A stretch of DNA of 55,679 nucleotides, filler included, from Jimgerdemannia flammicorona (GCA_003990765.1; 2 parts of 2 records of this genome joined end to end with filler, not necessarily neighbours in it), one strand, 5' to 3'; counted from the first letter of the whole stretch, positions 1,561 to 47,486 are shown. Notes: generated from the sequence alone by a model not told the origin. Numbers and translations: made by a program.

Positions 1561-2159
1561 TAGTGCTCTGAATGAGTTGATCTAAATTAGATTCAAATTA
1601 GATTCAAATTAACTCAGATAGAAAATAAGCCAATTTAAATTAATTTGTTTTGATTTTTAAAATTAGACAATAAAATATTTATATTAATAACTTGATATAT
1701 AATTATTTAATTTTAATAATCATAGTATTATTTAAAAGCTCTTAATAAGACCTTCCTAATGATACTAAGAATATTAAAATCAGATTATATATTATCAAGC
1801 TATTAAGAAAAATATTCTTTTGAATAAATTTTCAAAATTAGCAAATTGAATAATTTCTAAAATTAGTAAGTTAGACATTTTTCTTAATAACTTAACAATA
1901 TATAATTCAATTTCAATATTCTTGATATCATTAGAAAAGCCTTATCAAGAACTTTAAAATAATATTATAATTATCAAATTTAAATAATTATATTAAGTTA
2001 TTAATATAAATATTTAATTATCTAATTTTAGAAATTAAAATAATATTTTATTTAAATCAATCTAGATCAGCTTATTTTTTATCTAAGTTAATCTGGATGA
2101 AATTTAATTTAAATTAATCCAAATCCAATCTAGATTAAATTAACTTATTCAAAATACTA
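1561..2159. mobile_element. hAT-type MITE (palindromic), heavily mutated
   Basis: TIRs TAGTGCTCTGAATGAGTT / AACTTATTCAAAATACTA; degenerate 8-bp TSD TTTACAGA / CTTATAAG (differences are transitions); homologous to 45878-46417. Confidence 0.85.
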
Positions 2160-2229
2160 CTTATAAGTATAGTAAACCAATCTATTTTTTTTTTTTTTTT
2201 TTTTTATAGTCCCTTGGACCCTGTCTTTA

Positions 2230-5200
2230 TTACCAGTCTATGAATAAGTATACAATATCACCACCCACTAACCAATCCCCATCAGGGAGCCCCACCCCAC
2301 CTCTTCACATATAAAGACTACCCTCTTACTAACAACTCCAACTCTCCCACCACTCTGACCACAGATTTTCACCACCAAGCGGCACCTCCGACCCCCCTGC
2401 AGCCCCCAACCAAGCCACCAGCCTGTCAAGGTATTCTCCATAAGGAACTGCCACCTTGCTAACTGGCTCCCCAAGCTCTATCGCTTCTCCTCCTCAAATA
2501 CAAATAGCCAGTGACTGGCCAGCCCAACCCAAATAGCCAACGCCCAGCCTAGCGTAATCCACTCTTCCCCTACCCCTCCTATCAATCGATCCCTCAGGTC
2601 CTCCCACCTCTCCCGCACATCATCACCCCTACGCCTTACCCCTAAGCAGTCTCCAATGGCCTGCCAAAAGTCTCCCAACACCTCACACTCCCCTAGCCAA
2701 TATTCTGGCATCTGTACCAATCTCCCTTCCTGCCCTACATTATGGCACTCCTTGCAGTCAAAGCAGCTCCCGACAACAAGGTGTCCTGAGCGGAAGTTAA
2801 GCATCACATTCCTCCTCAGCACACGCCACCAGACTATCCAGTACTTCAGCGGCATCCAATTTTTCACTGCGGCACTCCAGGTCCAAACCCTATGCCAGTC
2901 CCACTCCTCACCAATTCCAACTCCTTGCCAACCACTAGGCCACAGATCCTGGCCTGGTCCCCTTTGGCATTTGATGCCATCACTAATGTTGAACTCCAGT
3001 AAAGGCATGCCTCCTAGAAGAATACTATCCTATCTCCACATCGCTGGGCCCCAAGCCCTCTCCCCCTCATCCCCTCGCCAGTAAATACCAATGTGGTGTG
3101 CCCCCTCAGCTATACCCCACCAGAAGCCTTTATATCTCAGTTGCACAGTATTCTGAAGCCCAACTAATGAAAGAAGATCACCAGTCAAGCCTCTAGGTGA
3201 TGTCCACCTCTCCCATATCTTCTGTAGCAAGGGGACCCAGCCCCCTCCATGCAACTCCACCGCCCTCCTCAGCCACCAAGCCCACAAGCAGTGTAGTCTT
3301 TTGGGGAAGTCCACCAGCCTAAGACCACCTCTTGCCACTGGTAGGGACAGAGTCTCCCAACCAATCTGACTCCGTCTGCCAGCCCAAATCCATCCCTTGG
3401 CCACCTTCACCAATCTCTTCACCACCCAGGCTGGGAAGTCCAGATGATAGGCCAAATACCACAGCTTCAGCAGCCAGTAAACATTCAAAATCAAGATCCT
3501 TCCTGCTAGAGAGAAGTGTTTACCCCCCCAACCCCACAGGTCCTCCTCCCAAATTTCAATCCTCTGCTCCCACCACAGTCTGGGCAAAACAGACCCATAG
3601 ACTGACAAATAGATGCCCAAGTACCGCACTGCCTCTCCGGTGGGGACAATTGTTCCAATAACTTCTCTACCCACCAAGCCATTGCCCAGCACCATTGTTT
3701 CACACTTATGCCAATTCAGCTTCACCCCAGAGTTCTCCTCATACCACTCCACTGTCTTCTGGAACTCCTCGACATCTGCAGTCACTCCCAAACCAACCAC
3801 CATATCATCCGCAAAGGCTCCAACCTTCCAGCCAACCCCATAGATAGAGAGCCCCACGATCCTCCGCTGAATCCTGTCCATGAGAGGTTCCAAGGAAAGA
3901 GCATACAAAATGGGGAACAGTGGGTCCCCCTGGGGCACTCCCCTACCCAGAGGGAATGCCACCCCTTGATACCCATTGCACATGAGCACAGCCCTACTCC
4001 TTTCCAGTAGGCTGACCATCGCTGACTGAAATGGGGCCAGAACTCCAATTCTATCTAATACTTTCGCCAGCCAGACTCGCCATACCCGGTCATAAGCCTT
4101 CTCCTGATCCAAGAAGACAAGATGCCCATCTAGTCCACAGGCTCGAGCACCTTTAATAACTCCATGTACCCAGGCTATGCCATCTCTAATGAGTCAACCC
4201 CCTATGAAGCCCCTCTGTTCAACACCCACAATTTGCTGGGCCACCTTCTGTAGCCTTGTGACCACCACCTTAGTCACCAACTTCCTGTCCATATCTAGTA
4301 ACATTATCGGCCGCCAGTTCTTCCAATCCTCTTGCCTTCCCTTGTTCTTATAAAGCAGTGTCACCAGCCCAAGATCTTGCTCCCCCACCCATCTCCCTGA
4401 CTGCAATATAGAGTCATATAGTGCTGTCAACTCCCCCAATATGCCCGGGACTCTAACCATTCGCTTCCAGAAGTCCCAGGGGAGACCATCCTCCCCAGGC
4501 GCCATACCCGAGGCTGTCGCGGCAAGAACCTGGTGGATCTCATCCTTCTTTACAGACATCACCAGGTCACCTAGTCCCTCAGCTTGTGGTGGGTGCCAAT
4601 CTTCTAATGTTTGGTCAATGGCTGTAGCATCTGCCCCACCCTCCTCCTCACTCCACAATCCACTCCATTATGCCTTCAGCATTCCAAGGATGTCCTGTAT
4701 ACCATGCACTAGTACATCATCTGAGTTAAGTACCCCTTCCTACCACTGCTGTACCCTTCTCACTCAAAGTGTCCTTGTGAGAAACTTGGAAGGCCTCTCC
4801 CCTTCCTCCACCCCCTGCCAATGAAGCTGTGCCACCAGGCCTTGCACCCTTGACTCTTCCTCTTCCCGCAGCACCTGTTGCAGTTCCCCAACCTCCATCC
4901 TCACCCTCATTATTCTCCAATCCTCTTCTCCCTCCACTGCTGCCAGTCTCGCCCACTCCTCCAGGAGCCTAGCCAATCTAGTAGAAGCCCAACGCACTTT
5001 CTGCCTTTGCTGCTTCCCAGCCACTCTGCCAACCTCACTCCAATACATCCTGGCCATCTCTTTCATCCTCATCCACTGAACCCCAATTGTGGCCCCTTCC
5101 TGCCACCAATTCACCACCTTCAGCTGAATATCTTTCGCCCACTCCTCCTACCAGGCCTCATCATTCAACAAGGAGGAATTCAGGTGCCAATGTCCAGGCC

Positions 5201-5924
5201 CATCTCTACTTCCCCCAAAATACCCCTGTCCCAAGAGGCCCCAGTGATCTGACCACGGACACCATTCTATCTCTATCACCTTCCAGACATTGTGGCCCCA
5301 ACAGTCAGCCATCAGAATCCAGTCAATCCTTGTCCCCAGACCTCCAGCCCAATGCGTATATACCCTCCTGTCCCCCCAGTGCTCCCTACCAGCATCCACC
5401 AGTACTCCTAGCCTTTCAACCTCCTCCCACGTCGCTAACCCCCCACTCCTGCTCTCCGCACCCCGTCTTCCATCAGTTCTATCCAGCTGTACATTCCGAA
5501 CCATATTGAAATCTCCTCCAAGCATATCCAACCCAGCTTCAGCAAGAATCCTACTCTCCAGGAGCCCCTTCACCCAATCCACACACTCCTCCCATATAGC
5601 AGGGCAGTAACAGGAGCCAACTGTGACTGGCTCCCAACCTGCTCGAATCCACTTACCCCAGACCAGTCTCTCTCCCCAGCTCCTCACATCCTTTATCTCC
5701 CCTCTGCCTTTCTGAACCAGAATCCCAACCTTGCTGTTCCAAATCGCCATACCACCCCATTTCTTAGTCTATTCCATCCTATCAGTATCATCCTCGCACC
5801 TGATATCCTGCAAGAGGAAGAGATCGGCCTCCAATCCCTTCAACCAAATAAAAATGTTCCTGTGTCTAACTATGCCCCTTAGCCCATTCACATTCAAAGA
5901 AAAAATGTTGGTTGTACTGTTCAT
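2230..5924 (-). pseudogene. LINE ORF2: APE endonuclease plus reverse transcriptase, with internal stops (3' end approximate)
   Basis: APE motifs IFSLNVNGL, LFLLQD, GGDFN, RIDWI, SDH; RT motifs APGEDGLP, NWRPIMLL, EQRGF, DQEKAYDRV, GVPQGDPL, AFADD, YLGI. Confidence 0.95.
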
Positions 5925-5943
5925 AATAAAATATGGTTTGTTC

Positions 5944-7985
5944 TCAATCAATCCCTACTGCTCCATGCCCCTCTCCTCCTGTGCCATGTCCAGATTATGT
6001 TCAGCCATCACCTCCTCCTCTTCAGCCCTCTGAGCCTCCAGTCCAGCCAACAGCTCATTCATCTCCTCATCAGCCTTCTCCTCAAACTCCTCTCGGTACT
6101 CAATGCAAGCCTCCTGCCAAAGCTACAACCCATGATGCCTGTTCCAACAGTACTCAACCTTCTCCCCAGCGACCACCGCCAACTCTGCCTCCCTCTCCTT
6201 ATCCACCTCATACCCTTCCTCCTCCAGATACACCATGAGAATTTCCGCCTTCAGTGCCATCGCCACTCCTTTCTCTTGCAAAATTCTCGTCTAGTGCTCG
6301 TCACCCATCCCATACAAGTCCACCTCCCCCAGCTCTTCTGCCACCAGGTTATTCATCATCCAGCACATCCAAAGTAGGTTCCCCACCTCCTTTCCACCAG
6401 GGGTCACTGGCCTCCCTCCATCCAGCATTGTGGTGTCCGCTCCCATACTTATATTCTCATCCCACACCTCCGGGACATCCACCAGTTCCTCCTCCCCTGC
6501 TGCCACTACTTGGTCCCCATCCAATGCCTCCGGAATACTGAATTTCACCTGCTGGGTCCCCAGCATCGTCACATCCTCCCCAGGCTTATTCCTGGAAGCC
6601 AGGCCATGCCTGATAAGAGGGGAAGGGGTGGGAGAGTTCTCCCAGACTTCATCCCAAACCTCCAAGATGCCATCAGCATATAGGTCACTAATCTTCACCT
6701 CCTTAGCCTTCTCTGACCCTGCCCCTTCGTTCCCACTCCTCTCACCAGCCCAGACACTCGCTCCGGCCCCTTCTGTATCTGTCTTCATACTCGTATCCTT
6801 CTGTGGTCCACCCCCCAGCTTAGCCAGCAGATCCTTCTGCCTCTTCTGCCTCTGAGCCCTTTCCCACTGCACCTTGTCCACTCGAATCCTCTTTCCATCC
6901 ATTACCTCCAGGAGCATTGACTCCTCGAAAGTCTTTCAGGCCTTAGCTCGCCGTTCCACAGCCCCATCCAGCTCCTCCAGCGCTTTCAATAAATCTTCCT
7001 CCTCTTCTTCACTTCCTTTCACTCACATCACCTTACACAGGAAAGTCCCCCAGACCAACACCGAAGGCCAGTCTCTTGTCTTCCCGGTAGCCTCTTTCCC
7101 AGCCAGCCAAATCCTCACATCCATATCCCTAGTTCTGAGTGTGGTCCCTTCCCAGACCCTGAATCTGATATCCACCACCTCTCCATACTCCGCCATGACA
7201 TCCTCCACTCTCTTCCTCGTCTCCATCACCGTCACCATGGGTACTCCTTTCACCAGCAGTTAGACCACCCTTGGATCCCATTTCAAACACCTCGCCATCG
7301 GAATACACACCTCCCCAACCACTAACCCAACCTTCAGTGCCTCCTCCAGTGGTTCCACCTTCTCAAATTCCACCTCCACCCCCTCCAGTCCCTTTAGAAA
7401 CTTCACCAAAGTCACTCCCGCCACCTGCTTAGCAATAAGCCCCAACACCATTTTTGCCATCACTGCTAAGCCCCAGAAGCACAGCATGACTGCGAACGCT
7501 GAGATCGACTTCTTGAGTAACGGAGCCACTGCCAGTCCCATTACACTATCTGCCAGGTCCCTGGGCCTCATGCCCTTCCCACTGCTTGGCTCATCATCAG
7601 CAGTCCCATCTAGATTTTTTTCCAGATCACCTGTCACACCCCCATCAGCAGTCCCCACCTCAGCCACTACCCCCCCAGCTCCACTCCTATGGCCCTCCAG
7701 AGAGGCACCCCCAAGAGGTTGCTGCCTGGAAGCTGCCATCAGTACCTTCCCCCCTCTCAGCCAGCTCTCCAGTCCAGCTCCCTGCCGACCCCTCTTCACC
7801 TTCTCCACAAAGCTCACCCTGCCAGACCCTTGACCTCCAGCTCTGCCCCCTCTTCCACCATGGCCCCCTGCCAGCAGGCCCCTCATACTTCCCCCCAAGC
7901 CGGGGCCTCTCCCTACTTGCTGCCATTCAAACGCTCCAGGGCCACCCTGCCTAGTATGCACCTCCGGATGCTCATTGGTCGCCAT
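5944..7985 (-). pseudogene. LINE ORF1 (RGG-rich N-terminus, RRM-like middle, coiled-coil C-terminus), broken by stops
   Basis: ORF pieces 7260-7985, 7023-7253 and 6291-6917 lie upstream of ORF2; same segments recur in the second copy at 31.2-33.25 kb; domain labels are inferred from composition. Confidence 0.8.
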
Positions 7986-8112
7986 GATACTAGTAGCTTT
8001 TCTCCAGAAACTATGTCAAAAGTGTTGCCAAAGGGTTGTGTAACCTGAATGTTACCGGAGAAAGATGCTGATAGTAAACCAATCTAAGGTAAAGAGGGTA
8101 AAAGTAGGAAAA

Positions 8113-9268
8113 CTTTTCTTTTTCTACTATCTTACTAGTCACAAGGTTTGATAGGCAATCTTCTGAGTTCCCTTCCCTCTATTATTACCCTCTTTACCTT
8201 AGATTGGTTTGCTATATCTATAAGAATATAGTAGAAGAGAGGCAATAGTAATGAATTACCTTTTTATCAGTATTAGATTAGTGTTTTCTCTACTTTTTCA
8301 CAGTTTCTAATATCTTTAGCTATGTCTGGAGTATACTTGTTTTAGTGTAGTACTTTCTTCCTTTTACTATTATCAATAAGATATCATCTAGAATATCATA
8401 AATTATATATAGAGTCAGCTAACCTTGGGTGTTAAGTGCTGGTATAATTATCTGCAAATCTTTAGTATCTGTAGTAGAGCTCTCTGAGCTTTAGTGAGCT
8501 TTTTAGTAAGCATAGTTCTGATATAGATAACTGCTTTTTGAGTAGAGTTGAGATGGAAGAGGAGATGGCTATCATAAATAAGAAAAAAGGTAATTATAGT
8601 AAATTAGTAGAATACTAGGCTGAGAGTAATCATCAGGGCTAGAGTAGATACTGTATCAGTGAGGTCTTCTGATTGGTGTAGGGCAGTTAGGTAGTAGGTA
8701 TCACTCTTGGTCTCTTTTAGTGATTCATGAGATTGGACCCTAATTGTTGGGAGGAATTGAGAGGCCCAAGGCTACTTATTTCAGATATCTTAGCTGTACT
8801 CAACTAGAACTAGTAATATAATTGAGACTTATAGGCTTAAGTAATAGGGTATTAGAAGTCTCCTCCTATCTCATATATAAGTTCTCTATTCATCTCATCT
8901 AGAAGAACTAGGCCCTACCCACTGTTCTATACTATAATAGAAATTTTTTCTTTATCTATTACTCTCTTTGAAGTAGCAGAAACTATACAAATCAACTCAG
9001 ATATAATCTTGTATATATATTGAAGTTTCAGACATATGTCTAAAGTATATATCTATTACTCTCTAATAGTAAGAAAAGCATAATATACAAAATAAGATAC
9101 AGACAACTCTACTTTACTATCTAATATAATCAAACTACTAAATAATAACTAATCTAAATTTAATAAAAATAAGTGATAAGAGAGAATTTCAACCTATATA
9201 ATCTAAATTCTCTTTTAATAAAATCCACAAAACTTCAGATCTATTAAAAAAAAAAAAAAAAAAAAAAA
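8113..9268 (+). mobile_element. Element X, full-length copy, plus strand
   Basis: Reverse complement of the 16253-17484 copy; polyA 9246-9268; TSD GTAAAAGTAGGAAAA (8098-8112) / GTAAAAGTAAAAAAA (9269-9283), differing by G>A. Confidence 0.85.
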
Positions 9269-9769: not shown

Positions 9770-11039
9770 ATGAATTATATTTACATACAAGCTGTTTCAA
9801 CATTTAGTCACTAGCTTACCAGCAATAGAAAAAATATATTCAGATGGAATAGATATTGCTGAAATAGCAAGATAATTGCAAGCTATTCATGAAAGATTAG
9901 GATATACCAACTGATTTCACTACCATCAATTCAGTATATCTATATAAGGATCAGCTAAATTCTCTGACAAATAACTAAAACAGTAAAAATTAACCAAGCT
10001 AACCAAAAAACATAAAAACAACACCCATTATTCAAGCTCATCATCCATATTGATATACTGTTTCTTCTTATATATTGAGTTGATAAAATCATCAGTATTA
10101 TGGGATATTGAGAGTATAATGATAGCATTAATAAGCTTATACTTCTTTTCTTAGATATGTTCTATCTGATTCTTCTATTCATCAATTAAGGATTTTTTTT
10201 ATTGCTTATAATAGAAATAACACATATTGATATATGAATCTAAGACTGAAGCTATACTATATAATGGTGTTATCTTGTAATAATACTTTAGAAGTTTTAT
10301 ATATATATTCTCAGTAGTGGTAAGTATTATCTATATAAAATAAAAAATAAATGAAAATATATATATATTACTTCTCAATTACTTACTAAATTAGTTCCTA
10401 AATTTATAAATAAAATTACTTTCAAAATCATATATATACTTGATTAAAATGTTCACCAGTTTGATATGTATTGATGACATCTTTGAGGTGATTATATAGC
10501 TGATTAAATAGTGGAATAACAGTCACTATTATAGGATACTTTGAAGCTGACATCATGGTTGTCACTTTGGCAAAAGGCTTAAGAAATTAGTAAATCAATT
10601 CAAATTATTACTATGCATCTTCAGATATATTGTTCATTTGCTTATCTATGATACATAATATATCTAAGCCCTATTTGGATATAATATCAATTTATTTAGT
10701 ACTAAAATACTTCCAAATCATATTCCAAAATCTATATAAATAGATTCAAAATATTATCTTATAAATCTCCAGAGTATGTACTAACATTTCATGTATAGAA
10801 CTCTATCTTATTATAATATCTAAGAGAGATTTCAAAATGGAAATTCTGGAGGATTCACAGACCTTCACCAGTTATACTTGTCATTGTGCTGAATTTTTGA
10901 TCTTTTTTATCAACTCCTATAGCTTTCCAATGGGCTCACTAAGAGAACCAAGAGCATTATGAATAACAATATTCAACATATATCCGAAACAGCATATATG
11001 AGTGAGCAGATAATGGAGATTCTCAAACAAAGTATCATT

Positions 11040-11104
<65 letters not shown>

Positions 11105-12546
11105 TTTAATGGACTCATGTCCCACAGATTTTTATTGGAAGGGAACCTAGACTATATAGGCCAAAACCCTCCCCCACCACCCACCAAGTACTGCCCCCCT
11201 ATTAACCTAGGCTAGCTATTGTCCAGCAGCTCAACCATGTCAGGCACAGCAGGGCTGATAAGCCCGCACCTCATTCTGCGCACCATGCTCTCTCTATCAC
11301 CAGGGGAAACCCAACCATATGCCAACGACTGAAAGCATATGCCTGAGAACCCAACATATGTACAAGGCCATGCCCAAGCCGAATAGAATAGCCCCTGCCA
11401 CCCCAAAGAGAATGACAGGTAAATAAAAACCCTCATCAAAGCACAACATGGTGGGTAGGGCCTGGTTCTCCCAGATGAGGTGAGTAAAGGACTTACATGT
11501 GAACAAAGTATCATTGTTACTAATATTATCACATACAATAGTAATGATTTGATTATTACTAGGTAATAAATCATCTATTACCAGCTCTAGACTTTTTGCA
11601 AGATTGATACCTATACATATATATTATTTTACTGATATTTACAAAGTCTAAGATAATATCATACCACTGTCAATCCAATAGGCTATTATTTCAAGAAAAG
11701 CATTAATATTAATGTCCAATATCTAACAATCAAGTATAAGTAATACCTTTGACTTAAGCCCTGCTAGTCTTGCTTTTACTTAAGTCTACAATAGTTCAAA
11801 TTCTTTTTGAATAACTCATGAAATTGTATCAGCTGATAGAAGGACCAGATCAGGGTATAATATGTGAAAGAGATATTTGAAGTCAGTATTTTTGATATTA
11901 GAGAATGGCTGATATCCAGTGACAATAAAGTTGGCAATTAACCAATAGAAATTTCCATCACTTAAAGTCTTGCTAGTATATTCTTATTTGTAATAATAAA
12001 ATTTGATGAATTATTTTTCTAATAACCTCCTAAGTACTTCCTGAATTCCATTTTATCCATACTCATAATATCTTTCTTAGACCAGCAAGAATTCTCAGCA
12101 TACTGGAGAGGTAAGAGTATGATATTATAATACTTCCAGAGATGTCATTTAAGATTATTAATATTACTGTCCTTCAATATATAGCTCCAAGTTATGTAAT
12201 AGTTATAACTGATGAGCTTACTTTGTAAATTCTATTTGAATAGAGAGATATGAGACTATATTAGAACCTCAATCACTTATAACTGACCACCCTTATGACC
12301 AACCATTCTTATAACTATGAGACCAACTACTCCTATGAATGTAACCATTAGTATAATATATAAAACTACCTTTGTGGCATGATTCCATACCCAGCTATTA
12401 TCAGGTTTTGTTTTTATTTTTATTTTTATGCTTGTTAGTAATAATGAACTGATGGAGATATCTAATATATTCTCTGATATATCCTCTGATATATCATTCA
12501 ATAGTTCTGAGATTTCTCCTAAATATACTTCTTGATCTTTAGACAT
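9770..12546 (-). pseudogene. hAT transposase, decayed
   Basis: BED-finger start SWVWNH (~12390); DNISNN (~11520); HICCFGYMLNIV (degenerate CxxH, ~10990); LDIIIR*SS..ML (DxxTRWNST); dimerisation domain YPNLS*IACNYLAISAISIPSEYIFSIAG (~9820-9910). Confidence 0.9.
11041..11501 (-). mobile_element. Element X, 5'-truncated copy inserted in the hAT transposase
   Basis: PolyT 11041-11103; perfect TSD AACAAAGTATCATTG at 11026-11040 and 11502-11516. Confidence 0.92.
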
Positions 12547-16252: not shown

Positions 16253-16328
<76 letters not shown>

Positions 16329-17484
16329 GACTCAATGTCCTATAGATTTTTAATAGAAGGGAACCTAGACTATATAGATCAAAACCCTCTTCCACTATCT
16401 ATCAAGCACTGTCCTCTTATTAATCTAAGCTAGCTATTGTCTAGTAGCTTGACCATACCAGATACAGTAGGACCAATAGTGGCCTATATCTCATTCTATA
16501 TACCATACTCTCTCTACTATCAGGGGAAACTCAACCATATGCCAATGACCAAAAGTACATGCCTGAAAACCCAATGTATATATAAGACTATGCTCAAGCT
16601 GAATAGAACAGCCCCTGCCACCCCAAAGAGAATAACAGATAAAGAAAAACTCTCATTAAAGTACAACATAGTGGGTAGGGCCTGGTTCTCCCAGTTAAGG
16701 TGAGTAAAGGACTTACATATGAGACAGGAGAATACTTCCAATATCTCACTACTCAAGCCTGCAAGCCTTGATTACATTGCCATATCAGCTCTCAGTTCTA
16801 GTTAAGTATAGTCAAGATACCTGAAATGAGTAGCCTTGGGCCCCCCGACCCCCCCTGATGACTAGGGCCCAACTCACCGAATCACTAAAAGAAGCTGAAA
16901 GTGATACCTATTACCTAACCATACTACATCAATCAAAAGACCCCACCAAAGTAGTATCTATCCCAGCTCCAACAACTGCCCCCAGCCTAATATCCTACTA
17001 GTTTACTGTTATCACTCTTCCTCCTATCTGTAATAACCATCTCGCCTCCTATCCTGATAATACCTGAAAAGCAGTCACCTACACCAGAACCACACTTATC
17101 AGAAAGTTTGCCAAAGCCAGAGAGCCCTACTATAAGTACTAAAAACCTATAGATAACCTATACTGAGTACTTGATACCCAAGGTCAACCAACTTCCTACA
17201 TAGTCCAAAACACACTGAGACAATATCTTATTGATGATAGCAAAAGGAAGAAAATATCATACCAAAACAGATATACTCCAGATATAGTCAAAAATATCAG
17301 AAACTGCAAAAAAGTAGAGAAGACACCAATCTGATACCAATAAAGAAACAACTCATCACTATTGCCTCCCTCCTACTGTCCTATAATAAGTACAATAAAC
17401 CAACCCAAGATAAAGAAGATAATAATTGTGGAAAATAAACTTGGAAAATTACCTACCAAACCATTATAACCAGTAAGATAGTGG
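16253..17484 (-). mobile_element. Element X, near full-length copy
   Basis: PolyT 16253-16324; perfect TSD TCAAATTTGCTCTC at 16239-16252 and 17485-17498. Confidence 0.92.
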
Positions 17485-18087
17485 TCAAATTTGCTCTCTT
17501 TCTCATTGCCACCTTAGATGGAAAATCATTACTATCCTCACTATTTATCTCCAAATCAGATGACTGCTGGTACAATAGTGATATACTTTTTCTTGATAGT
17601 GGAGAATTAAATAGAGGAATAATCACAATACTAGGAGCAGAAATACGTCCTGTTTCCTCTATTTTGTTTTCCCTTTTATGCTTTCTTTCGCGTTTCTACA
17701 AGGTATAATAGGGTCAATAAGATTGTTAGTTGGAACTTTTTTTTTTTTTTTTAATTAATTCCAAAAGAAACTTACATATTTTTCATCGGATTTCTCATGG
17801 TCCGGCAACGCGTGCTTTAGTGTCTTTATTGCTTTATCAGTCACGATTGCTCGGTTTCATCCATGGTGCCCACCAACGCGCGTTTAGCGTATTTTAACTG
17901 TATAGTAAAATTAGTACCTTATCAACATAAAATTAATTCACCAACCTGTAGCAATTCAATTTCTGTCTCATAACGTCTTCTATTAACTGACTCCCAGAAA
18001 GCATTAACACCTTCGGAAGACTTCTCATTCTTGTAATAAAAAGTGTAGAAAAGGATGTTATTACTTTTCGGGCACTGTGTTATAAAA

Positions 18088-18318
18088 GACTGAGATGGGT
18101 GACCATGACACGGGACGTAGCCTGACAACCGGCCAGGGCGTAGCCAGCCAGTTGCGTCATGGCAATGGAACGTAGCCTATTCAAGAGCTCCCGATTGAGG
18201 ACGTAGCTCACTCCCCAGCCAAGGCGTAGTCGGCCGGTTCCTCGGGGTTTGTCAACACGCCATATAACACGGAGTCATAATGGGACGTATTCTAGCCCTC
18301 GAACCACCCATCTCAGCC
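18088..18318 (-). ncRNA. Putative structured intronic RNA in intron 1 of gene A
   Basis: Perfect 12-bp inverted repeat CTGAGATGGGTG (18090-18101) / CACCCATCTCAG (18305-18316) enclosing six CUACG/AUACG motifs, most of them in short hairpins. Confidence 0.6.
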
Positions 18319-18575
18319 AGTAATAAGGATTAATACAGACCTCGTAGTTTTCAAGAGAGACTTCAGCTTTAGTGCGTTTCTCCTCGGATTTGTCGTGGAG
18401 CATTTTCCCGAGGACTTTAAAATATGACCTGTGCTCTTCCACTTTGTTTTCGAAATCCAGCGCGTCTTCTCGATATTTCAAATAGTCGAGCAGTGACCAC
18501 GAATTGTTTTCTTCGAAGTAAGATTCCGCGTTCGGCATAGTGGCTGAATCACGAAATATGCGATATGTAGAAGAT

Positions 18576-19751
18576 TTAGTTCGGTACTGTTAATTTCTGA
18601 GTTATGGCGTACATACAAAACCCATTTTTAGTTCGGCAAGATCAATTATCATTGACAAGAACGAAACTTGGGCATACAGCAAGTGACTCACCTCATCCGG
18701 GCTTGGGGCGTTTCCGCCGTTGCGATTTTTCTTTGTGCCCTGTAAATAATTTAAAATTTTATGCAGGTTCGCTGGGATAGGGAAAAAAGGACCGGCAAGT
18801 GTTTCGGGAACGTTTTATTCAAGAACAACCGAATACTATACCTCGTCTTCCTTGCTCGCGGCTATGGACTGCTTGCCGCTGGACGTCGCTTTGACCTTCG
18901 GCGTGTCCGAGTCGCTCTCCCATTCGTCAAGGTCACCGGTTATAGAAGAATTTTGCTTACCAGCCTTATACAAACACAAATCAATAGTTTCAAAAAAAAA
19001 AAAAAAAAAGAATAAAAAAAAAAAAAAAAAAAAAAAAAGGGGCATTAGAATCACTATATTGACGTCGGCAAATACGTTGTGTCATAGCACTCCTCTGACT
19101 AACCTTCTTTCGGTTCGCATAGCGGATTTCGATACTGTTCCAAAACTCGTCAACATCGAGGCATTTGACTCGATGATTCTATAAAGGAATTAATATGATA
19201 AAGGCGATCCAAAAAAAAAAAAAAAAAAAAAAAAAAAGGACTGACAAGGCAGACCACAACGGGATCTAATGAACGCCATAAGGTCAGGTGGCACGTAGGC
19301 ACCCGCCATAGTTGTGTGAGCATGTTGCCCCTTCTCGGGACTCTGGGGGGCCCCACCTCCGTAAGAGAGGCCGATCCGGCCAAGCTTGCGGACCATGATG
19401 GGATGACACCCTTAAAGTGGACGGCACGTAGGCATCCACCGTAATCATGGAAGTATATTTCCCCTTCTCGGGACTTAACAGGGCCCTCCATACTGCCTGC
19501 CAGCCGGTGACGCTTTAAATAAGAATACTCACCTGAAATTTCTGCAGCAAACGTTTAACGCCTTGCTTGACATTGTCCACTTCGTGTTCAACCATGAATT
19601 CAAGGCATTTGCGGAGAGCGAAGGCCTCAGACCGGAAATCGTAAGTAAAGTCGATTTGATTCTGTCGGTGGCGATAGAAGTCGAGAAACCTATAGTTCTC
19701 GGGCGAATTTTGTTGGAAGTACGCGTATGCACTCGCTAAAGCTGGTTCCAT
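18576..19751 (-). CDS. Orphan gene B, predicted ~161 aa, five exons, unknown function
   Basis: Exons 19533-19751, 19104-19178, 18842-18964, 18692-18739 and 18576-18596 with GT-AG phase-0 introns give an open frame (last exons less certain); exons 1-2 parallel gene A (YF..LD(F/Y)..R...F...E and N......V..FW.S). Confidence 0.65.
19239..19505 (-). ncRNA. Putative structured intronic RNA in intron 1 of gene B
   Basis: Closing stem GGCUGGCAGGCAG / CUGCCUUGUCAGUC followed by C and a 27-U tract; two colinear 64-nt repeats (19290-19353, 19423-19486) with compensatory changes. Confidence 0.65.
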
Positions 19752-19899
19752 CGTTCAAAGAGACGCGTCAAGTGATGTTTTTCACCTAAAATATTTTCCA
19801 ATCGGTGACGTCATCAGGATAGCGACGTGTGACAAGAAAGATATTAGTGGGTTTGAAGGTTATGAAGTTGGTGGTTTGAAGATGAAGGCGCTTGCGACA

Positions 19900-22400
19900 G
19901 AGTCAATGAACTAAAGGAAAACTTAAGCGAGAATTACCAGAAGTAACTCAAGAACCGAGGAAAAAACGAAAATATCAGAAGAGTAGAATATTGTACGGGT
20001 ATATATAGGAGTAACTTCGTGTATTCTTTAAAATGTTCTTGTAGAAGAAATTGCATATGGTAAACAATAAAAACATGAATGAATACAAGAAAGCTCTCTA
20101 TTTTTTAGATGTAGGCTGGTTGCAGTTGCTTCGCCAAGGTTCCCAAGCTCTAACAAGACATTTTTTTGATGGCATAGCTCCATGGTAATATCAAAAGAAT
20201 GCCTAAGTGAAAAACCAAGATGTTTATTGATATTAACGTGACTACCTTAAGCTATGCCGAAGTCCCAGTCTAGTGAGAAATGATTGTGTGACTCTTTTTA
20301 CCTGCTACAAAACTGTTCACGTGATTTTTTAGCAGGCCTAGAAGAAGATAGCTTTTTTTTTTTTTTTTTTTTTTTTTTAACAGACTCATAGTTCCATGGA
20401 TTTTTATTGGAAGAGAACCTAGACTATATAGGCCAAAACCCTCCCCCACTACCTACTGAACAATATCTCCCCATTAACCTAGGCTACTAAATTGTCCAGT
20501 AGTTCTACTGCTCCAGCTATGCCTATCAAACACTAGCTACATTGACTCCTATGATATAGACCAGACTTGTCTGCTCACCAGGACTGGATCATCATTTATA
20601 TATAAGAGCACACCTATACGTCAGATCTAGCAGTACTAGGACTAAATAAAGAATAGTCCTTTAAACCCCAAAAGAAAGCCTAAGGTAAAGAAAAAACCCC
20701 CCAACCAACTAATAGAGAGCAAAGTGGATTCAAAGTGGGTGAGTAAAGGACTTACATGTAGAACCTTCTACAAAGGACTTACATATGGGCTAGGGCCAGA
20801 AAAGACCCCACTCCTACTCTCTGAGCCTGTGGGCCTTGATTACATTACCATATCAGCTCCTGGTTTTAGTCAGATACTGTTAAATGAGGAAGACCCCACT
20901 CTCTAAGTCTGCGGGCCTCAATTGTATTACTACATCAGCTTCTAGTTTCAGTTGAGTACAGCCAGGATACCAGCCCCTACACTACCCCACCCTCTACCAG
21001 CCAATTGAAAGGCCCCACCAAAATATTGTCTGCCCCAGCCCCAATGATCACCTCCAGCCTAGCACCCCACTGATTCACTATTATCACCCTTCCTCCTATC
21101 TATGATGGCCATCTCCTCTCCCATCTCAATAATACCCAAAAAACAGTCACCTATGCCAAAACTATGCTCGCTGAGAAGCTCGCCAAAGCCAGAGGACCCC
21201 ACCACAGATACTAAGAACTTGCAGATAACCTATACTGAGCACTTGATACCCAAGATTGGCCAACTCTCTACATAGCCCAAGATATATCAAAACAATACCA
21301 TATTGGTGATAGCAAAAGGAAGAAGATGCTGCATCAAAACAATATACTCCAGATGTAGCCAAAGATACCAGAAACTACAAAAAAGTAGAGAAGACACTGA
21401 TCTGATACCAATAAAAGGACAACTCATCACCATTGCCCTCCTCCCACTATGCCCATACAGGTATAGCAAACCAACCTAAGGTAGAGGAGATAATAATAGG
21501 GGAAAGGAGACTTGGAAGGTTGCCTACCAAATCTTGTAACTAATAAGGTAGCAGAGAAAGGAGCTAACTTGTAGAAGAAGATAGCACTTTGTATGTCCTG
21601 AAATATGATATGTTCCACAAATTATAGTATCAGCTAACTCTATATATTTAAATCAAGAGCCTCTAAACTGATTTATGTAATATTTATCAGAGCTTATAGA
21701 ATGACTTGCAATTTAAAGCTCATAAAGAGAAAGAGATTTAAGATAAATAAAGATCACCTAACCAAAGTCAAATTAGAATAAAACTATTATAATAGAAATA
21801 CCAAATTGATGAAAGAGCTAAGAAAACTTATTAACTAGAATTATTCTATACTGAAAGATGAGATATTATTCTACAGTATCAATACAGTTACCTATTATAG
21901 TTATAACTGAGCTTAAAATATCTATATATCTTATTTAGATTAATAGATTAATAAAATATATTATCTTAGTACTCATAAAGTATATTTGTTTAGTATCTAA
22001 GATAAAGCTATATATGAGCAAATTAATTATATATTCAATAAGTATGAACTTTTTAGAAAAGGTTCAAATAGTATACTTAGTCTAGTTTTTAATAGAATTA
22101 AATAATTAAATAAAAATAAAAGTTATCTATAATAATATAGGTAGATAAAACAAAAATAATACCACTCTTTAGTTTTACCCATATCTGATAATTGCTAAAT
22201 ATTATAAAACTATTAAGTTTAATTTTATAGTTCTGGACTATATTAAAGTTAAATATAATTACAGTTTTGGTCTAATTAAAAGGCTTTATTACAAAACTAT
22301 AGTAGATTATATAGATTATATTACAGATATAGTAAAAAGATCTAACATTATCAGATTAATAAAGCTTTATTAGGAAAAAAAACTTCAGTTTATATTTACT
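19900..22400 (+). pseudogene. Decayed Sola-like DDD transposase (DNCxGQNKN type), split by an X insertion
   Basis: Degenerate motifs after reverting transitions: HGN..R.P, P.TDLC..C (~21660), YSYD.AQN, INY..DE.E...KG.N, DN.GGQNKNN (~22130-22160), F.VPGH.K..CD..FG.IK; boundaries approximate. Confidence 0.6.
20353..21571 (-). mobile_element. Element X, full-length variant copy with internal duplications
   Basis: PolyT 20353-20378; perfect TSD TAGAAGAAGATAGC at 20339-20352 and 21572-21585. Confidence 0.92.
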
Positions 22401-27796: not shown

Positions 27797-27896
27797 NNNN
27801 NNNNNNNNNNNNNNNNNNNNNNNNNNNNNNNNNNNNNNNNTTAATTAATTAANNNNNNNNNNNNNNNNNNNNNNNNNNNNNNNNNNNNNNNNNNNN
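27797..27896. other. Assembly gap with artificial TTAATTAATTAA spacer
   Basis: 44 N + TTAATTAATTAA + 44 N. Confidence 0.95.
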
Positions 27897-30800
27897 ACCA
27901 TCTCTCCTATACACTACCTCCAAACAATCCCCAACAGCCCACCAAAAGTCACTAAGTACCTCACACTCTCCTAGCCAATATTCAGGTATCTGTACATATC
28001 CCTCTTCCTGCTCTACATTGTGGCACTCCTTACAGTTGAAGCAACTCCCCTTGATAAGGTGATCTAAGCAGAAGTTGAGCATTACATTCCTTCTCAGTAT
28101 GTGTGACCAGACCACCAGTACTTTAGCAGTATCCACCTCTGCACCTCAGTACTCTAGACCCAAATACTATGCCAGTTCCACTCTTCTCTAATACCCACTT
28201 CCTGCTATCTACTAGGCCACAGATCCTGGTCTGGTTCTCTTTGGCATTCTATCTCATCATTAATGTTGAACTCAATTAAGAAAACACCTCCTAGTAACAC
28301 TCAGTCTCATCTCTACATCACTGGATCCCAAGCTACCTCCTCTTCAATTTCCTGCCAATGAATTCCAATGCAGTGCACCCCCTCTACTACCCTCCACCAG
28401 AAGCCTTTGTATCACAATTGTTCAGTGTTTTGAAGTCCAACCAATGATAGGAGATCTCTTGTTGAGCCTCTTGATAAGGACCTTATCTCTCAAACCTTCT
28501 GCAATAGGGGGACTCAACTGCCCCCTCTCAACTCCACTGCTCTCTTTAACCACCATACTCTCAAGCAGTATAGCCTCTTCAGAAAGTCAACCAGCCCAAG
28601 TCCTTCTCTTGCCACTGGTAAGGATAAGACCTCCCAACTGATCTAATTCCTTCTTCCAGCCTAGATCCACCTCTTGGCCAGCTTTATCAATCTCTTCACC
28701 ACCCAGGCTGGGAAGTTCAGATGATAAGCCAGATACCATAACTTTGGTAGCCAATAGATGTTCAAAATTGAGACATGCCCCATCAGAGATAAGTGGTGAC
28801 CCCCCTAACTCTGCAGGGCCTCCCCCCAGATACCAACCCTCTGCTTCCACCAAAGTCTGGATAGTACTGACCCATATACTGACAAATAAATACCCAAGTA
28901 CTGCACTACCTCACCAATAGGGACAATTGTTCCAATAACATCCCCTCTCACCAGGCTATTGCCTAATACCATTATTTCACACTTTTGCCAATTGAGTTTA
29001 GCCCCAGAGTTCTCCTCATATCACTCTACTGTCTCCTTAAGCTCCTCAATATCAGCAACCAATCCCAGGCCAACCACCATATTATCTACAAAGGCCCCAA
29101 CTTTCCACCCAATTCTAAAGATAGAGAGCCTGACTATCTTCCACCTGATTCTATCTATTAGGAGTTCTAGGAAAAGAGCATATAGAATGGAAGATAGTAG
29201 GTCCCCCTGGGGCACACCCCTACCCAGGGGAAATAATACCCCTCTATGTCCATTATATATGAGTGCAGCCCTACTTCCTTCCAGTAGGCTGATCATTGCT
29301 GACCAGAACTGGTGCAGTACCTCAGTCTTATCTAATACTTTCACCAGCCAGACTTGCCACACTCAGTCATAAGCCTTTTCCTGGTCCAAAAAGACCAGTT
29401 GTCCATCCAGTCCACAAGCTTGTGTCTCTTCAATAATGCCATATATGTACCTAGGCTATGCTATCTCTAATGAGCTGGCCTCCTACAAATCCCCTCTGCT
29501 CAATACCCAAAACTTGCTGGGCCACCTTCTGTAGCCTTGTGACCACTATCTTAGTCACTAACTTTCTGTCCATGTCTAGTAGCATAATCAGCTGCCAGTT
29601 CTTCCAGTCCTCTCACCTTCCTTTATTCTTGTAAAGTAATACCACTAGCCCCAGATCCTGCTCCCCCACCCATCTTCCTATCTATAGTATAAAATCACAC
29701 AATGCTATCATCTCACCCAATACTTCTGGGACTTCTATCATCTTCTTCCAGAAGTCCCAGAGTAGACCATCCTCTCCAGGTACCATATCTGGCATTGTCA
29801 CAGCAAAAATCTGGAGGATCTCTTCCTCTTGTACTGGTAACATCAAGTCATCCAGCCCATCTACTTGTAGAGGGTACCAATCCTCTAATGCCTAGTTAAT
29901 GACAGCAGCATCAGCCCTACCCTCCTCCTTACTCCATAATCTACTCCATTGCTCCTTTAATAATCCAAGAATATCTTGTATACCATGTATCAGTATATCA
30001 TCAGAGTCAATACTCCCTCTCATCTTTACTATACTCTTCTCACCTAAAGGGCCCTCATGAGGTACTTTGAGGGCCTCTCTCCTTCCTCCAAACCCTACCA
30101 ATGAAGCCATGCCACCAAGCTCTACACCCTTGTCTCTTTCTCTTCCTGCAACACCTATTGTAATTCTCCAACCTCTATTTTTGCCCTCATTAATCTCCAA
30201 TCCTCTTCCCCCTCTAATATCACTAGCCCTGCCCAATCTTCCAAGAGTCTAGCCAGTCTAACAGAAGCCCATCTCACCTATCACCTCCTCTGCTTCTCAG
30301 CCTCCTTGCCAGCCTCACTCTAGTAGACCCTGATCATCTCTTTCATCCTCATCTACTGAACACTAACTGGGGTACCTTTCTGCCTCCAGATCTCTACCCT
30401 CAGTTGAATGTCTTCAGCCCACTCATCTCATCAGATCCAATCATCTAATAAAGAGGAATTGAGATGCCAATATCCAGGCCCATCCCCACTCCCTCCAAAA
30501 TGCCCCTGTCCTAACAGCCTCCAATAATCTGACCATAGATACCATTCCACCTCTAGCAACTTCCAAACATCCAAACCCCAGTAGCTAGCTATCAAAATCC
30601 AGTCAATTCTCATCCCCAGGCCCTCTGCCTAATGTGTGTATATTCTCCTATCTCTCCAACACTCCCTACCAGCATTTACCAGAGCACTTAGCCTTTTCAC
30701 TTCCTCTTATACCACCAGTCCTCTACTCCTACTCTCAGCTCTCTATCCTTCATCTGTTCTATTCATTAGTATATCTCAGACCATATTGAAGTCTCCACCA

Positions 30801-33334
30801 AGCATATCCACCCCAGTCTCTATAAGGATCCCACTCTCCTGGAGATTCTTCACCCAGTCTACATACTCATCCTGTACAGCAGAGCAGTAACAAGAGCCTA
30901 CTGTGACTAGCTCCCAACCTGTATGTATCCACTCTCCTCAGACCAATCTATCTCTCTAGCTCCTCATATCCTATATCTCCCCTCTGCCTTTCTGGACCAG
31001 AATCCCAATCTTGCCCTTCTAAACTGCCTCATCTCCCCATTCTTTCATCCATTCTAGCCTATCTAAATCATCCTCACATCTGATATCCTACAAGAGAAAG
31101 AGATCAGCCTCCAATCTCTTCAGCCAAGTAAAAATGTTCCTATATTGAGAAGTGCCCTGTAATCCATTCATATTCAAAGAAAAAATGTTGGTTGTACTAT
31201 TCATAATGAAATATAGTATATTATCAAGTTTATCCCTACTGCTCTATATTCATCTCTTCCTGCACTATGTCTGCAGTCACCTCCTCCTCTTCAGCCCTCT
31301 GAGCCTCCAATCCAGCCAATAGCTCATTCATCTCTCCATCTGCCTTCTCCTCAAACTCCTTCTGGTACTCTAGGCAGGCCTCCTGCTAGAGCTGCAATCT
31401 ATGATGCTTGGTTCAGTAGTATTTAGCCCTCTCACCAGTGACATCTGCCAGCTCTGTCTCCCACTCCTTATTCACCTCATACCCTTTCTCCTCTAGATAT
31501 ATTATAAGGATTTCCACCTTCAATGCTATCACCACTCTATCCTCTTGTAAGATCTATACCCAATGCTCATTGCTCATTACTCTCAGATCCACCTCCTCTA
31601 ACTCTTCAGCTGCCAGATTATTCATCATCCTATATATCCAAAGTAGGTTCCCCACCTCCTTCTCTTCAGAAGTTACTGGCCTCTCTCCATCCAGCATCAT
31701 GATATTAGCCCTGGTACTTGCAGACTCATTCTACACCTCTGGGACATCCACCAGTTCCTCCTCTCCAACTGCCACTACTTGTTCTCTATTTGCTATCTCT
31801 GAAACTCCAAATTGTACTCACTGGGTCTCCCACATTGATATATTCTCTACTACCCTGCTTCGGGAAGTCAGACCTCATCTGATAAGAGGAGTAGAGGTAG
31901 GCAAGTCCTCCCAGGCCTCCTCCCAGACCTCAAATGTACCATCAGTATATGAGTTATTACTAGTCACCTCCCTGTCCTCTCCTGTCTCCTTTCCTGCACT
32001 CCTGCTACCCTCACTGGTCCAGACACTTGCTTTGGCCCCCCCATCTTCACCATTCTACCTGCATCCTTCTGTGATCTACCTTCCAGCTTAACCAGCAGCT
32101 CCTTCTGTCTCTTATGTCTCTGAGCTCTTTCCCACTACCCCTTATCTACTCGAATCCACCTCCCATCCACCACCTCTAAGTGTATCAACTCTACAAAAGT
32201 CTTCCAAGCCTTCATCTACTGCTCTATAGTACTACTTAGCTCTTTCAGTGCTTCCAATAAGTCCTCTTCCTCCTCCTCACTCCCCTTTACTCTCATTACC
32301 TTATATAAGATCACTCTCTAGACCATTCCTGAAGGCCAGTCCCTTGTCTTCCTAGTAGCTTTCTTCTCTGCTAGCTGAATTCTCACATCAACATTCCCAG
32401 TTCTAAGCAAGGTCTCTTCCCAGATTCTGAATCTGATATCTACCACCTCTTCATACTCTGCCATAACCTCCTCGACTCTTCTTCTTATCTCTACTGCTAT
32501 CACTATAAGCACTCCTTTTACCAGCAGTTGTATTACCCTGAGATCTCATCTTAGACAATGTATCATTAGAACACATATCTCCCCAACAGTCAATCCAACC
32601 TTCAGTACCTTCTCCAAAGGCCTAGCCTCCTCAAAGTCTACCTCTACTCTCTCCAATCCCTTCAGAAACTTTACTAATACTGTCTCAGTCACCTGCTTAG
32701 CAATATGCCCTAGCACTATTTTTGCCATCACTACAAGGCCCTAGAAGTACAATATAACTATGAATGCTGAGATTGATTTTTTGAGTAACAGGACCACCAC
32801 CAGACCTATCACACCATCTGCCAAACCCCTCTACCTTCCAAGCCCCAGTCACTCAACTATGCTATCAGCAGCCACATCTGGATTTTTTTCCAGATTGGCA
32901 GTTCCATCACTATCAGCCATTATACTCACCCCAGCTACTATACCCCCAGCTCCACTGCCTCTACTGCCAAGGGCTACTCTCCCATATACTACTATCTTTT
33001 CCATCTCCTTACCTTTCCTCAGCCATCTCTCTAGCCCAGATAACCTGCTATCTTCTCTTCACCATTTCTGCAAAGCTCATCCTCCCAGACTCCTGTCCTC
33101 TACCACTATCTCCTCCCCTTCCATGTCCTCTCACCAGCAGTCCCCTCATATCCCCCCCCAGTCTAGAGCCTCTCCCTACATACTGCCAGTCAAATGTGCT
33201 TGAGCTATCCTACCTAGTATACATCTCAGATTACCTATCAGTTACCATGTTGCTAGTCTCTTTTCTCCAAAAACAATGTTGTAAGTACTTTCTAAAGATT
33301 GTATAATCCAAATGGTACCAGAGAAAGGTATCTG
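27897..33334 (-). mobile_element. Second, more eroded copy of the L1/Tx1-like LINE (3' end lost in gap)
   Basis: Colinear with 2600-8070: GVPQGD, AFVDN, RIDWILIA, SDY, ORF1 segments; the 5' end abuts X sequence. Confidence 0.92.
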
Positions 33335-34410
33335 TAAGCTTACTATTATCTAGTAGTTTTACTATATTAGATATAATAGGATCTAATATAGCCTATACCT
33401 CATTCTACATATATATCATACTCTCTCTATTATTAGAGAGAATCCAATTATATATATGTCTATGACCAGAAACATATACTTACAACTCTAATATATATAT
33501 ATATATAAGATTATATTAGAGCCAAATAGCTAAAAGTCTCTACTACTTTAAATAGAGCAATAGGTATAAAAAAAAACCCCCCTCTCTTAAGATATAGAGT
33601 AGTAAGTAGAACCTAGTTCTCTCTGATGAAGTAAGTAAAGAACTTATATATAAAACAGGAGGAGACTCTTAATACCTTACTATTAAAGTCTATAGATCTT
33701 AATTATATTATTATATTAGCTTCTAGTTTCAGTTAAGTATAGTCTAGATATCTGACCTAAGTAGTCTTGAACTTCTCAATAACCTCAAATAACTAGAGTT
33801 TAATCTTATAGATTACTAAGAGTTGCTAAGAGTAATATCTATTATCTAATTACTCTATATCAATTAGAAGACCCTACTGATATAGTATTTATAAACCCTA
33901 ATAGTCATTATTAGTCTAGTATCTGACTGGTTTATCATAATCACCCTTTTACTTATTTATAATAGATATCTCTCCTTCTATTCTAATATATACTATCTGA
34001 AAAGCAATCATCTACACTAGAACTATACTTACCAGAAAGCTTACTAAAGCTTAGAGGGCCCTACTATAAGTATTAATAACCTATAGATAACCTATACTGA
34101 TACTTAATACTCAAGGTCAACTGACTCTCTATACAGCCTGTAATATCAAAATGATACCTCATTGATAATAGTAAAAGAAAGAAAGTATTATATCAAAATA
34201 AGTATACTCTAGATATAACTAGAGATATAAGAAATTATGAAAAAGTAGAGAAAGCACTGATCTAATACTGATAAAAGAGTAACTCATCACTATTGCCTTT
34301 CTCTCACTATCTTATAATGACTACAGCAAACTACACCAAGATAGAGAAAGTTATAAATTAGAGAAAGAGGACTCAGCCAGTTGTCTATCAGATCTTATAA
34401 CTGATATACA
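33335..34410 (-). mobile_element. Element X, eroded copy interrupted by the second LINE
   Basis: Colinear with 16430-17480. Confidence 0.85.
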
Positions 34411-47372: not shown

Positions 47373-47375
47373 ACT

Positions 47376-47393
47376 TGGTGCCCATTGGCTGGT
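47376..47393 (+). promoter_or_regulatory. Putative primer-binding site
   Basis: TGGTGCCCATTGG... begins 3 nt after the 5' LTR; primer tRNA not identified. Confidence 0.7.
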
Positions 47394-47486
47394 GATTCAA
47401 GACGAATCCCTCACTTTCAAGCTGAACAACAAACAACCACCACTACCCGAACAACCATACAAACCAAGCCCCAATACCCAGACAAG

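Follow-up and report, generated by a model that had tools for sequence, protein, structure and literature searches.

The CUACG motifs clustered in intron 1 of a small Jimgerdemannia flammicorona gene (gene A) appear to mark a folded RNA domain of about 230 nt that is kept in a tandem sister gene (gene B) and in a distant relative on a metagenome contig (L001). The motif is in excess over shuffled sequence, the three introns share one predicted architecture, base pairs have changed on both sides between them, and in gene A and L001 the sense strand folds better than the antisense strand. The domain may be a conserved structured element of a fungal spliceosomal intron, with a function possibly more unusual than that. 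The reading preferred here, held with moderate confidence, is that of a cis-acting intron module in which a zipper-like helix and two factor-binding loops gate splicing of the intron.

The window, meaning the whole analysed stretch of 55,679 bases, can be assigned to the nuclear DNA of J. flammicorona, a root-associated fungus of the Endogonales (Mucoromycota), because one of its ORFs is identical to a named protein of this species. It is full of dispersed CpG-poor repeats and retroelement ORFs, which surround a gene island at 17751-20000.

44333-45247: ORF with 100% identity to a named Jimgerdemannia flammicorona protein
16256-17482 and 20353-21560: copies of a dispersed repeat family on both sides of the gene island
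196-1549, 8118-8970, 11038-11505 and 33335-34348: further copies of the same family

The copies of this family show 72-85% identity. CpG observed/expected is 0.64-1.68 in the island and 0-0.24 in the dispersed repeats bordering it, and such nearly CpG-free repeats suggest methylation-driven decay from which the genes were spared. The earlier note had pointed to CpGs surviving in the array next to repeats that have lost them; the survival is real but not specific to the array, as the whole island keeps its CpG. Elsewhere in the window, strand asymmetry is extreme at 2001-8000 and 28001-33000 (GC skew -0.36 to -0.54, with related ORFs), and a minus-strand ORF at 3030-4193, inside the first of these stretches, has a reverse-transcriptase-like translation; the two stretches appear to be copies of a LINE-like element, with decay further advanced in one of them. 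A series of long plus-strand ORFs with A-rich skew at 47187-52251 has the look of an LTR retrotransposon, its translations resembling, by eye, zinc-knuckle, dUTPase-like, reverse-transcriptase and integrase-like proteins. Assembly gaps of 44 N each lie at 27797-27840 and 27853-27896.

Gene A is a small three-exon gene on the minus strand, with a first intron six times as long as the second.

18341..18538, minus strand: exon 1, 66 codons with the ATG at 18538; 11 homologs, and a tblastn match to P0008
18030..18340, minus strand: intron 1, 311 nt, GUCUGU...AAG, containing the entire motif array
17946..18029, minus strand: exon 2, 28 codons
17898-17945, minus strand: intron 2, 48 nt
17841..17897, minus strand: exon 3, 18 codons plus stop

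This model is confirmed by P0008, the spliced 147-aa protein of Paraglomus occultum, since it matches exon 1 (18538-18338) and exons 2-3 (18038-17847, residues 64-111) in order in tblastn. The same matches bear out the earlier placement of the array inside a gene A intron. The gene family comprises 11 proteins at E up to 0.001 in a full HMMER scan of 1.84 billion representatives; its named members come from Jimgerdemannia, Endogone (Endogone sp. RUS14797.1), Paraglomus (P. occultum CAG8630549.1) and Funneliformis (F. mosseae CAG8665311.1), the others being metagenomic. A further candidate from the metagenome scan, L002, was dropped as a homolog, as it shared only the word FEENNSW. No Pfam domain was found in the family, and the host protein had no usable Atlas match. 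The AlphaFold model of P0008 is all-helical and confident (pLDDT 87.8), and at E up to 0.001 no fold in the PDB matches it. Being all-helical, with neither a fold match nor a Pfam family, the host protein carries nothing that marks it as RNA-binding. P0008 is 59-61% identical to gene A exon 1, more than the Endogone sp. protein P0012 at 36-39%; old paralogy, contamination or transfer could account for this order.

The deposited model RUS34302.1 (P0007, 281 aa) spans 18275-19751 on the minus strand and merges gene B exon 1, frames of the gene B intron and spacer, and gene A exon 1, its gene A part including 21 codons read through into intron 1. It looks like a mis-annotated fusion of two small tandem paralogs, both introns being read through, in which case the gene model deposited for this locus would be wrong.

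The six motifs lie where the earlier note had placed them, with CGTAG on the plus strand at 18116, 18139, 18171, 18202 and 18225 and CGTAT at 18286, at spacings of 23, 32, 31, 23 and 61 nt. Five of the 16 plus-strand CGTAG words in the 55,679 bases fall in the array. In RNA sense, CUACG is the top 5-mer of the 231-nt domain, with five occurrences against 0.28 expected, a count reached by none of 5000 dinucleotide shuffles; the excess is due in part to an internal duplication of 41 nt in the array (18113-18153 vs 18199-18239, 76% identity). Enrichment extends to the homologous introns, each with two CUACG, a number reached by 19 of 5000 shuffles for gene B and by 41 of 5000 for L001. Multivalent binding of a putative factor by the motifs is a reasonable suggestion. 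Membership of the CsrB family, to whose sponges the earlier note had likened the array, is not supported: Rfam gives no match, the motif differs from GGA and the setting is a eukaryotic intron. Nor does the array look like a processed repeat array, as it has no regular repeat/spacer unit and Tandem Repeats Finder found no tandem array.

In the predicted fold the gene A domain is a three-way junction: P1 joins its ends, P2 leads to hairpin 1 and P3 leads to hairpin 2. The elements are listed in RNA order.

18305..18318, minus strand: P1 5' strand, GGCUGAGAUGGGUG, inverted repeat I1, in a 14-bp helix of the minimum-energy fold
18294..18304, minus strand: P2 5' strand, GUUCGAGGGCU, in the fold; block probably also present in P0001, P0014 and P0020, to judge from their read-through peptides
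18286..18290, minus strand: AUACG variant, within an extra hairpin of about 35 nt that gene B lacks
18215..18237, minus strand: hairpin 1, 8-bp stem and 7-nt loop CUACGCC (motif 18225)
18202..18206, minus strand: extra CUACG, GCUACGUCC, unpaired stretch 3' of hairpin 1; absent from L001
18179..18189, minus strand: P2 3' strand, AGCUCUUGAAU, minimum-energy fold
18171..18175, minus strand: extra CUACG, GGCUACGUUCC, P2-P3 linker; absent from L001
18156..18163, minus strand: P3 5' strand, base of the hairpin-2 arm, CAUGAC in gene A
18125..18155, minus strand: hairpin 2, 12-bp stem and loop CUACGCC (motif 18139)
18116..18120, minus strand: extra CUACG, GGCUACGUCCC, internal loop of the P3 arm; absent from L001
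18102..18109, minus strand: P3 3' strand, GUCAUG in gene A
18088..18101, minus strand: P1 3' strand, CACCCAUCUCAGUC, inverted repeat, minimum-energy fold

P2 runs on directly from P1 on the 5' side, and the P1 strands belong to a 22-nt inverted repeat (18080-18101 / 18305-18326) around a GC-rich insert. Hairpin 1 of gene A, which has a competing pairing, is missing from the minimum-energy fold; it reaches a pair probability of about 0.38 and can be forced at a cost of 0.2 kcal/mol. The conserved loops of hairpins 1 and 2 are formed by the motifs at 18225 and 18139. Those at 18202, 18171 and 18116 read R-CUACGU-Y-CC and that at 18286 reads AAUACGUCC; in the predicted fold these four extra copies fall in unpaired linkers, internal loops or the extra hairpin, and L001 lacks them. 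The AUACG variant is possibly kept in Endogone sp., as the read-through tail of P0012 would suggest. The picture of a conserved loop on variable stems, drawn in the earlier note, holds for two of the six motifs.

Gene B carries its own copy of the domain.

19533..19751, minus strand: exon 1 of gene B, the tandem paralog; tblastn matches to P0008 (E 8.7e-6) and P0014 (E 4.7e-5)
19179..19532, minus strand: intron 1 of gene B, 354 nt, at the gene A codon position, with its own domain copy
19493..19505, minus strand: gene B P1 5' strand, GGCUGGCAGGCAG, minimum-energy fold
19416..19440, minus strand: gene B hairpin 1, 8-bp stem and loop CCUACGUGC, pair probabilities 0.82-1.0
19283..19307, minus strand: gene B hairpin 2, loop CCUACGUGC
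19239..19252, minus strand: gene B P1 3' strand, CUGCCUuGUCAGUC, with one bulge

Within this intron UGCCUACGUGCC occurs twice, inside an internal repeat of about 133 nt. The third intron, that of L001, belongs to a homolog with 44% protein identity over exon 1; it starts at the same place and with the same GUCUGUAU as the gene A intron. The codon before the intron (...F/Y-E/Q) is the same throughout, in the read-through forms as well as in gene A, gene B and L001. The 5' splice site GUCUGU is common to gene A and L001, and probably also to P0001, P0009 and P0011, in which 'VC' appears where the intron is read through. The tails of P0001, P0014/P0021, P0020 and P0012, when back-translated, are compatible with the GAUGGGUGGUUCGAGGGCUAG and GUGUUGACAAACCCC blocks of the window, a degenerate comparison that is not evidence at the DNA level.

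The three introns, folded independently at minimum energy, all show one plan. For gene A, gene B and L001 in turn, P1 measures 14, 13 and 15 bp and P2 measures 11, 10 (with one mismatch) and 12 bp; P3, hairpin 2 and hairpin 1 are found in all three.

P1 of L001: UUAAGAGUUACUAUG paired with CAUAGUAGCUCUUGG
P2 of L001: UUGGCAUCCAAA paired with UUUGGAUGUCAA
P3: CACAAC paired with GUUGUG in gene B; CAUAAC paired with GUUAUG in L001

The hairpin loops are the 7-nt CUACGCC in gene A and L001 and the 9-nt CCUACGUGC in gene B, identical within each gene and different between the paralogs. Directly after the 3' strand of P1 there are 4 U in gene A (18083-18087) and about 29 U in gene B (19210-19240); L001 has no such run. 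At the 5' end of the domain lie the words TGGCTGAGATGG and GGTTCGAGGGC, which presumably resemble the A box and the B box. Together, the U runs and these words could hint at an RNA polymerase III or tRNA-derived origin, though long T/A runs are common throughout the window.

Between gene A and L001 the hairpin 1 block (CCAGCUGACUACGCCUUGGCUGG vs CCGGCCGACUACGCCUUGGCUGG) is identical at 21 of 23 positions and the hairpin 2 block (CUGGAUGGCUACGCCCCAACUAG vs CUGGCUGGCUACGCCCUGGCCGG) at 17 of 23, as compared with 103 of 201 identical columns (51%) in exon 1, and the intron outside these two blocks has diverged. On these counts the domain blocks of the intron are conserved above the protein-coding exon 1. 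The stems of 3-4 bp proposed in the earlier note (e.g., GGC-CGACUAC-GCC) are readable in the sequence, but their register is not the conserved one: a G-to-A change in L001 breaks GGC/GCC and keeps the 8-bp stem of hairpin 1, in which it turns a G-U pair into A-U. The same comparison bears on an extremely improbable reading in which a small alternative ('poison') exon consists of the conserved blocks. In L001 as in gene A, hairpin 1 can be translated as PADYALAG, the differences being synonymous only and AG/GU dinucleotides lying on its flanks, and all changes in its 26-nt block fall at third codon positions of one frame. However, these very changes also keep base pairs (G-U to A-U, C-G to U-G), and at the protein level conservation is lacking in the hairpin 2 block (LAGYALAGC vs LDGYAPTSC). 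The two blocks, moreover, lie in different frames with stops between them, and the candidate exon lengths are 29 nt and 22 nt.

Pairing was counted formally for the hairpins and the P3 arm only, because MAFFT could not align the P1 and P2 strands, and the counts are lenient, since the structure was drawn from the same three introns. Standard pairs fill 46 of the 50 cells of the six hairpins, a share that none of 500 shuffles attains and that compares with 16-50% in slid controls; four pairs have changed on both sides. For P3 plus hairpin 2 in the three introns, 47 of 54 cells are paired (slid controls 28-48%), with six pairs changed on both sides, a result reached by one of 500 shuffles. The P1 and P2 5' strands of gene A and L001 are identical at only 9 of 27 positions, and both are fully paired. 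P1 has the same outer five pairs in gene A as in gene B, and five of its inner pairs, as judged by reading, differ on both sides. The longest ungapped helix enclosing at least 100 nt is 17 bp in gene A and 16 bp in L001, lengths that none of 200 shuffles reaches; in gene B the long-range helix is not significant (15 of 200 shuffles), one reason being that the long U run of this intron can pair with stretches of purines.

Folding energies separate the strands in gene A and L001. The gene A domain folds at -99.9 kcal/mol in sense and -81.1 kcal/mol in antisense (z -3.63, reached by 0 of 200 shuffles, vs -1.53), and the L001 domain gives z -3.79 (0 of 200) in sense and -0.81 in antisense. The expectation that folding exceeds that of shuffled sequence is upheld in these two introns but unclear in gene B, where the sense strand has z -1.65 (11 of 200) and the antisense strand is slightly better (z -2.22, 5 of 200). 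Whole-intron folds are not significant for gene B (z -1.09) or L001 (z -1.42). A covariance model built from L001 alone and run over both strands of the window at E up to 10 returned just two matches, the hairpins of gene A, with E-values of 0.025 and 0.038; in a 2.5-kb search without filters, third place went to hairpin 1 of gene B, weakly, at E 0.21. These E-values are rough, the calibration having been short, and the model aligned the full domain in neither gene A nor gene B, its matches being hairpins.

The pairing and strand data weigh against a reading at the level of DNA, in which the GGCGTAGCC-type words would be transcription factor sites of an intronic enhancer and the symmetry around them would come from binding of a dimer. 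Enhancers are frequent in first introns, and the words have an ACGT-like core that recurs every 23-32 bp. Such sites would nevertheless leave aside that long helices co-change, some of them 100-200 nt apart and with G-U pairs that are mismatches in DNA, and that the antisense folds of gene A and L001 are much worse; this alternative is considered very improbable.

The first idea entertained, a recent MITE or foldback element, was overturned by the homologs and dropped, because L001 keeps the two motif blocks, gene B has its own copy and the read-through ORFs agree. An older version of it supposes that the domain is the relic of a MITE, foldback or tRNA-derived repeat in the ancestral intron, carried along without function. 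The inverted repeat around its GC-rich insert and the internal duplication would suit such a relic, as would a genome full of repeats, the likeness of the loop to the Arg(ACG) anticodon loop and the presumed A- and B-box-like words. Against this, no second copy of the gene A element was found in the 55.7 kb window, its 64-codon frame has no match in the protein collection, and the insert is older than both the duplication into genes A and B and the split from L001. The 'terminal repeats' differ among gene A, gene B and L001 yet stay complementary, whereas unselected arms would lose complementarity; many G-U pairs make the fold strand-specific, and neither ARAGORN (0 tRNA genes in the window) nor Rfam finds a tRNA. 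A functionless relic is accordingly judged improbable.

Among known classes, Rfam at the gathering score gave no relevant match in the window (CsrB, TPP, ribozymes, snoRNAs and tRNA included), and 4227 families searched over both strands of 17950-18450 at E up to 10 returned one chance-level match to an Enterococcus sRNA. The model of the TPP riboswitch, a known riboswitch of fungal introns, had no match in 17950-18450. C/D boxes (RUGAUGA, CUGA) or H/ACA boxes were not found at equivalent positions in the three introns, P3 running straight into P1 with no ACA tail, and the two-motif DNA pattern retrieved nothing from prokaryote genome contigs.

The main alternative, possible if tentative, is that the intron domain, once spliced out and debranched, persists as a stable small RNA with ends locked by P1; its two CUACG loops would act in trans on a target RNA or protein, the host gene serving mainly as a carrier in the manner of a snoRNA host. 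The intron blocks are more conserved than exon 1 (21/23 vs 103/201), P1 joins both ends, as in many stable small RNAs, P1 is followed by runs of 4 U (gene A) and about 29 U (gene B), and the part of Gao et al. 2021 (PMC8216456) drawn on here allows that intronic structures are either cis elements or stand-alone genes. On the other side, the window gave no relevant Rfam match, the three introns have no C/D or H/ACA boxes at equivalent positions, and L001 lacks the U run. The domain, furthermore, is always found in one and the same intron of a single gene family, and in the paralog the two loops have changed in concert; a gene-specific cis role fits these facts better than a shared trans target.

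The cis-acting module is favoured because the intron is six times its neighbour's length and starts with a conserved non-consensus GUCUGU. P1 would fold away the long insert as a yeast zipper stem does, bringing the weak-looking GUCUGU 5' splice site close to the branch region. The two identical loops, together with the four extra CUACG copies, which are single-stranded and specific to the Jimgerdemannia lineage, would then offer docking sites to a two-fold or multivalent factor, which would stabilise or disrupt the fold and in this way set the amount of mRNA. The effect on splicing, the binding factor itself and its identity, and any feedback are all inferred; the host protein would be one candidate factor. 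Loops that are identical within a gene and different between paralogs would fit a partner co-evolving with each gene, and internal duplication or gene conversion would fit them equally well.

Bases 1-5 of the loop, C-U-A-C-G, presumably correspond to positions 32-36 in the anticodon loop of a tRNA-Arg(ACG); positions 6-7 do not fit, and this likeness serves as a lead only. A rather unlikely further reading is that the domain represents a new eukaryotic RNA switch, in which the two loops mimic the tRNA-Arg(ACG) anticodon loop or form a two-fold receptor, or else that the excised domain is the product and the protein its carrier. As a switch, it would leave P1 formation and intron removal to be decided by a factor that recognises tRNA, by the host protein or by a small ligand. 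If either the switch or the excised product were true, it would be the first conserved structured regulatory RNA for Endogonales and Glomeromycota.

Because the intron is more conserved than the protein and several of its helices compensate, the domain is a concrete, testable candidate for regulated splicing or an intron-derived RNA, and it concerns fungi that cannot be grown alone. To our knowledge, nearly all conserved RNA structures described for spliceosomal introns come from yeasts and a few ascomycetes. Literature searches on Glomeromycota intron structures gave nothing relevant among the matches listed, those for CUACGCC gave only unrelated oligonucleotides among the matches listed, and no screens of early-diverging mycorrhizal fungi for intron structures were found in the literature.

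CsrB and RsmZ are bacterial sponge RNAs, free sRNAs with many GGA loops. The domain shares with them a multivalent-capture logic, a short motif being repeated, partly in loops on unrelated stems, but it differs in lying in a eukaryotic intron, in its CUACG motif, in having only two conserved copies and in having no Rfam match. Another parallel is the operator of Escherichia coli thrS, an mRNA mimic of an anticodon arm that binds a tRNA-recognising protein. Here, too, there are two hairpins, with a 7-nt loop that opens with C-U-A-C-G, presumably as positions 32-36 of tRNA-Arg(ACG) do; unlike in such mimics, however, loop positions 6-7 are C-C rather than a purine followed by A, the loop of gene B has 9 nt, and gene A is not a gene for a tRNA enzyme. 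A comparable idea of anticodon mimicry has been put forward for the intron of a fungal lysyl-tRNA synthetase gene, in the part of PMC8216456 drawn on here.

That study (Gao, Jones and Rivas 2021, PMC8216456), a covariation screen of five ascomycete genomes, describes conserved structures in the introns of fungal genes, those for RPS13, lysyl-tRNA synthetase and metacaspase 1B among them. As with those structures, the present domain occupies one intron of one gene family, is found across species and is suspected to be a protein-binding cis site. It differs in that its family, its loop motif and its host gene are absent from their 17 structures, in a paper where 'Mucor' goes unmentioned, and in that three sequences are compared here as against hundreds there.

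The closest parallel to the proposed module is found in yeast. According to the passages of Rangan et al. 2025 (PMC12350175) drawn on here, introns of Saccharomyces cerevisiae contain zipper stems as well as multiway junctions in which stems are exposed to partners; three-way junctions hold stems outside the spliceosome, where partners could bind, and the linkers that connect a zipper stem with the 5' splice site and with the branch point total 42-85 nt (PMC12350175). With branch points guessed and a rule taken from the yeast spliceosome, the linkers come to about 41-52 nt for gene A, while gene B and L001 have about 63-79 nt. In all three folds P1 falls under the zipper-stem definition given in those passages, with branch-like words downstream. 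The zipper stem of RPL7B is, in the part of PMC12311795 drawn on, a target of autoregulation. As far as these passages describe the yeast stems, the domain resembles them in that its internal stems project from a junction and would be accessible to partners. It differs from them in belonging to the Mucoromycota and to a gene that does not encode a ribosomal protein, in being known here from sequence and predicted folds, and in that the part looped out by the zipper-like helix is itself conserved and carries two identical apical loops.
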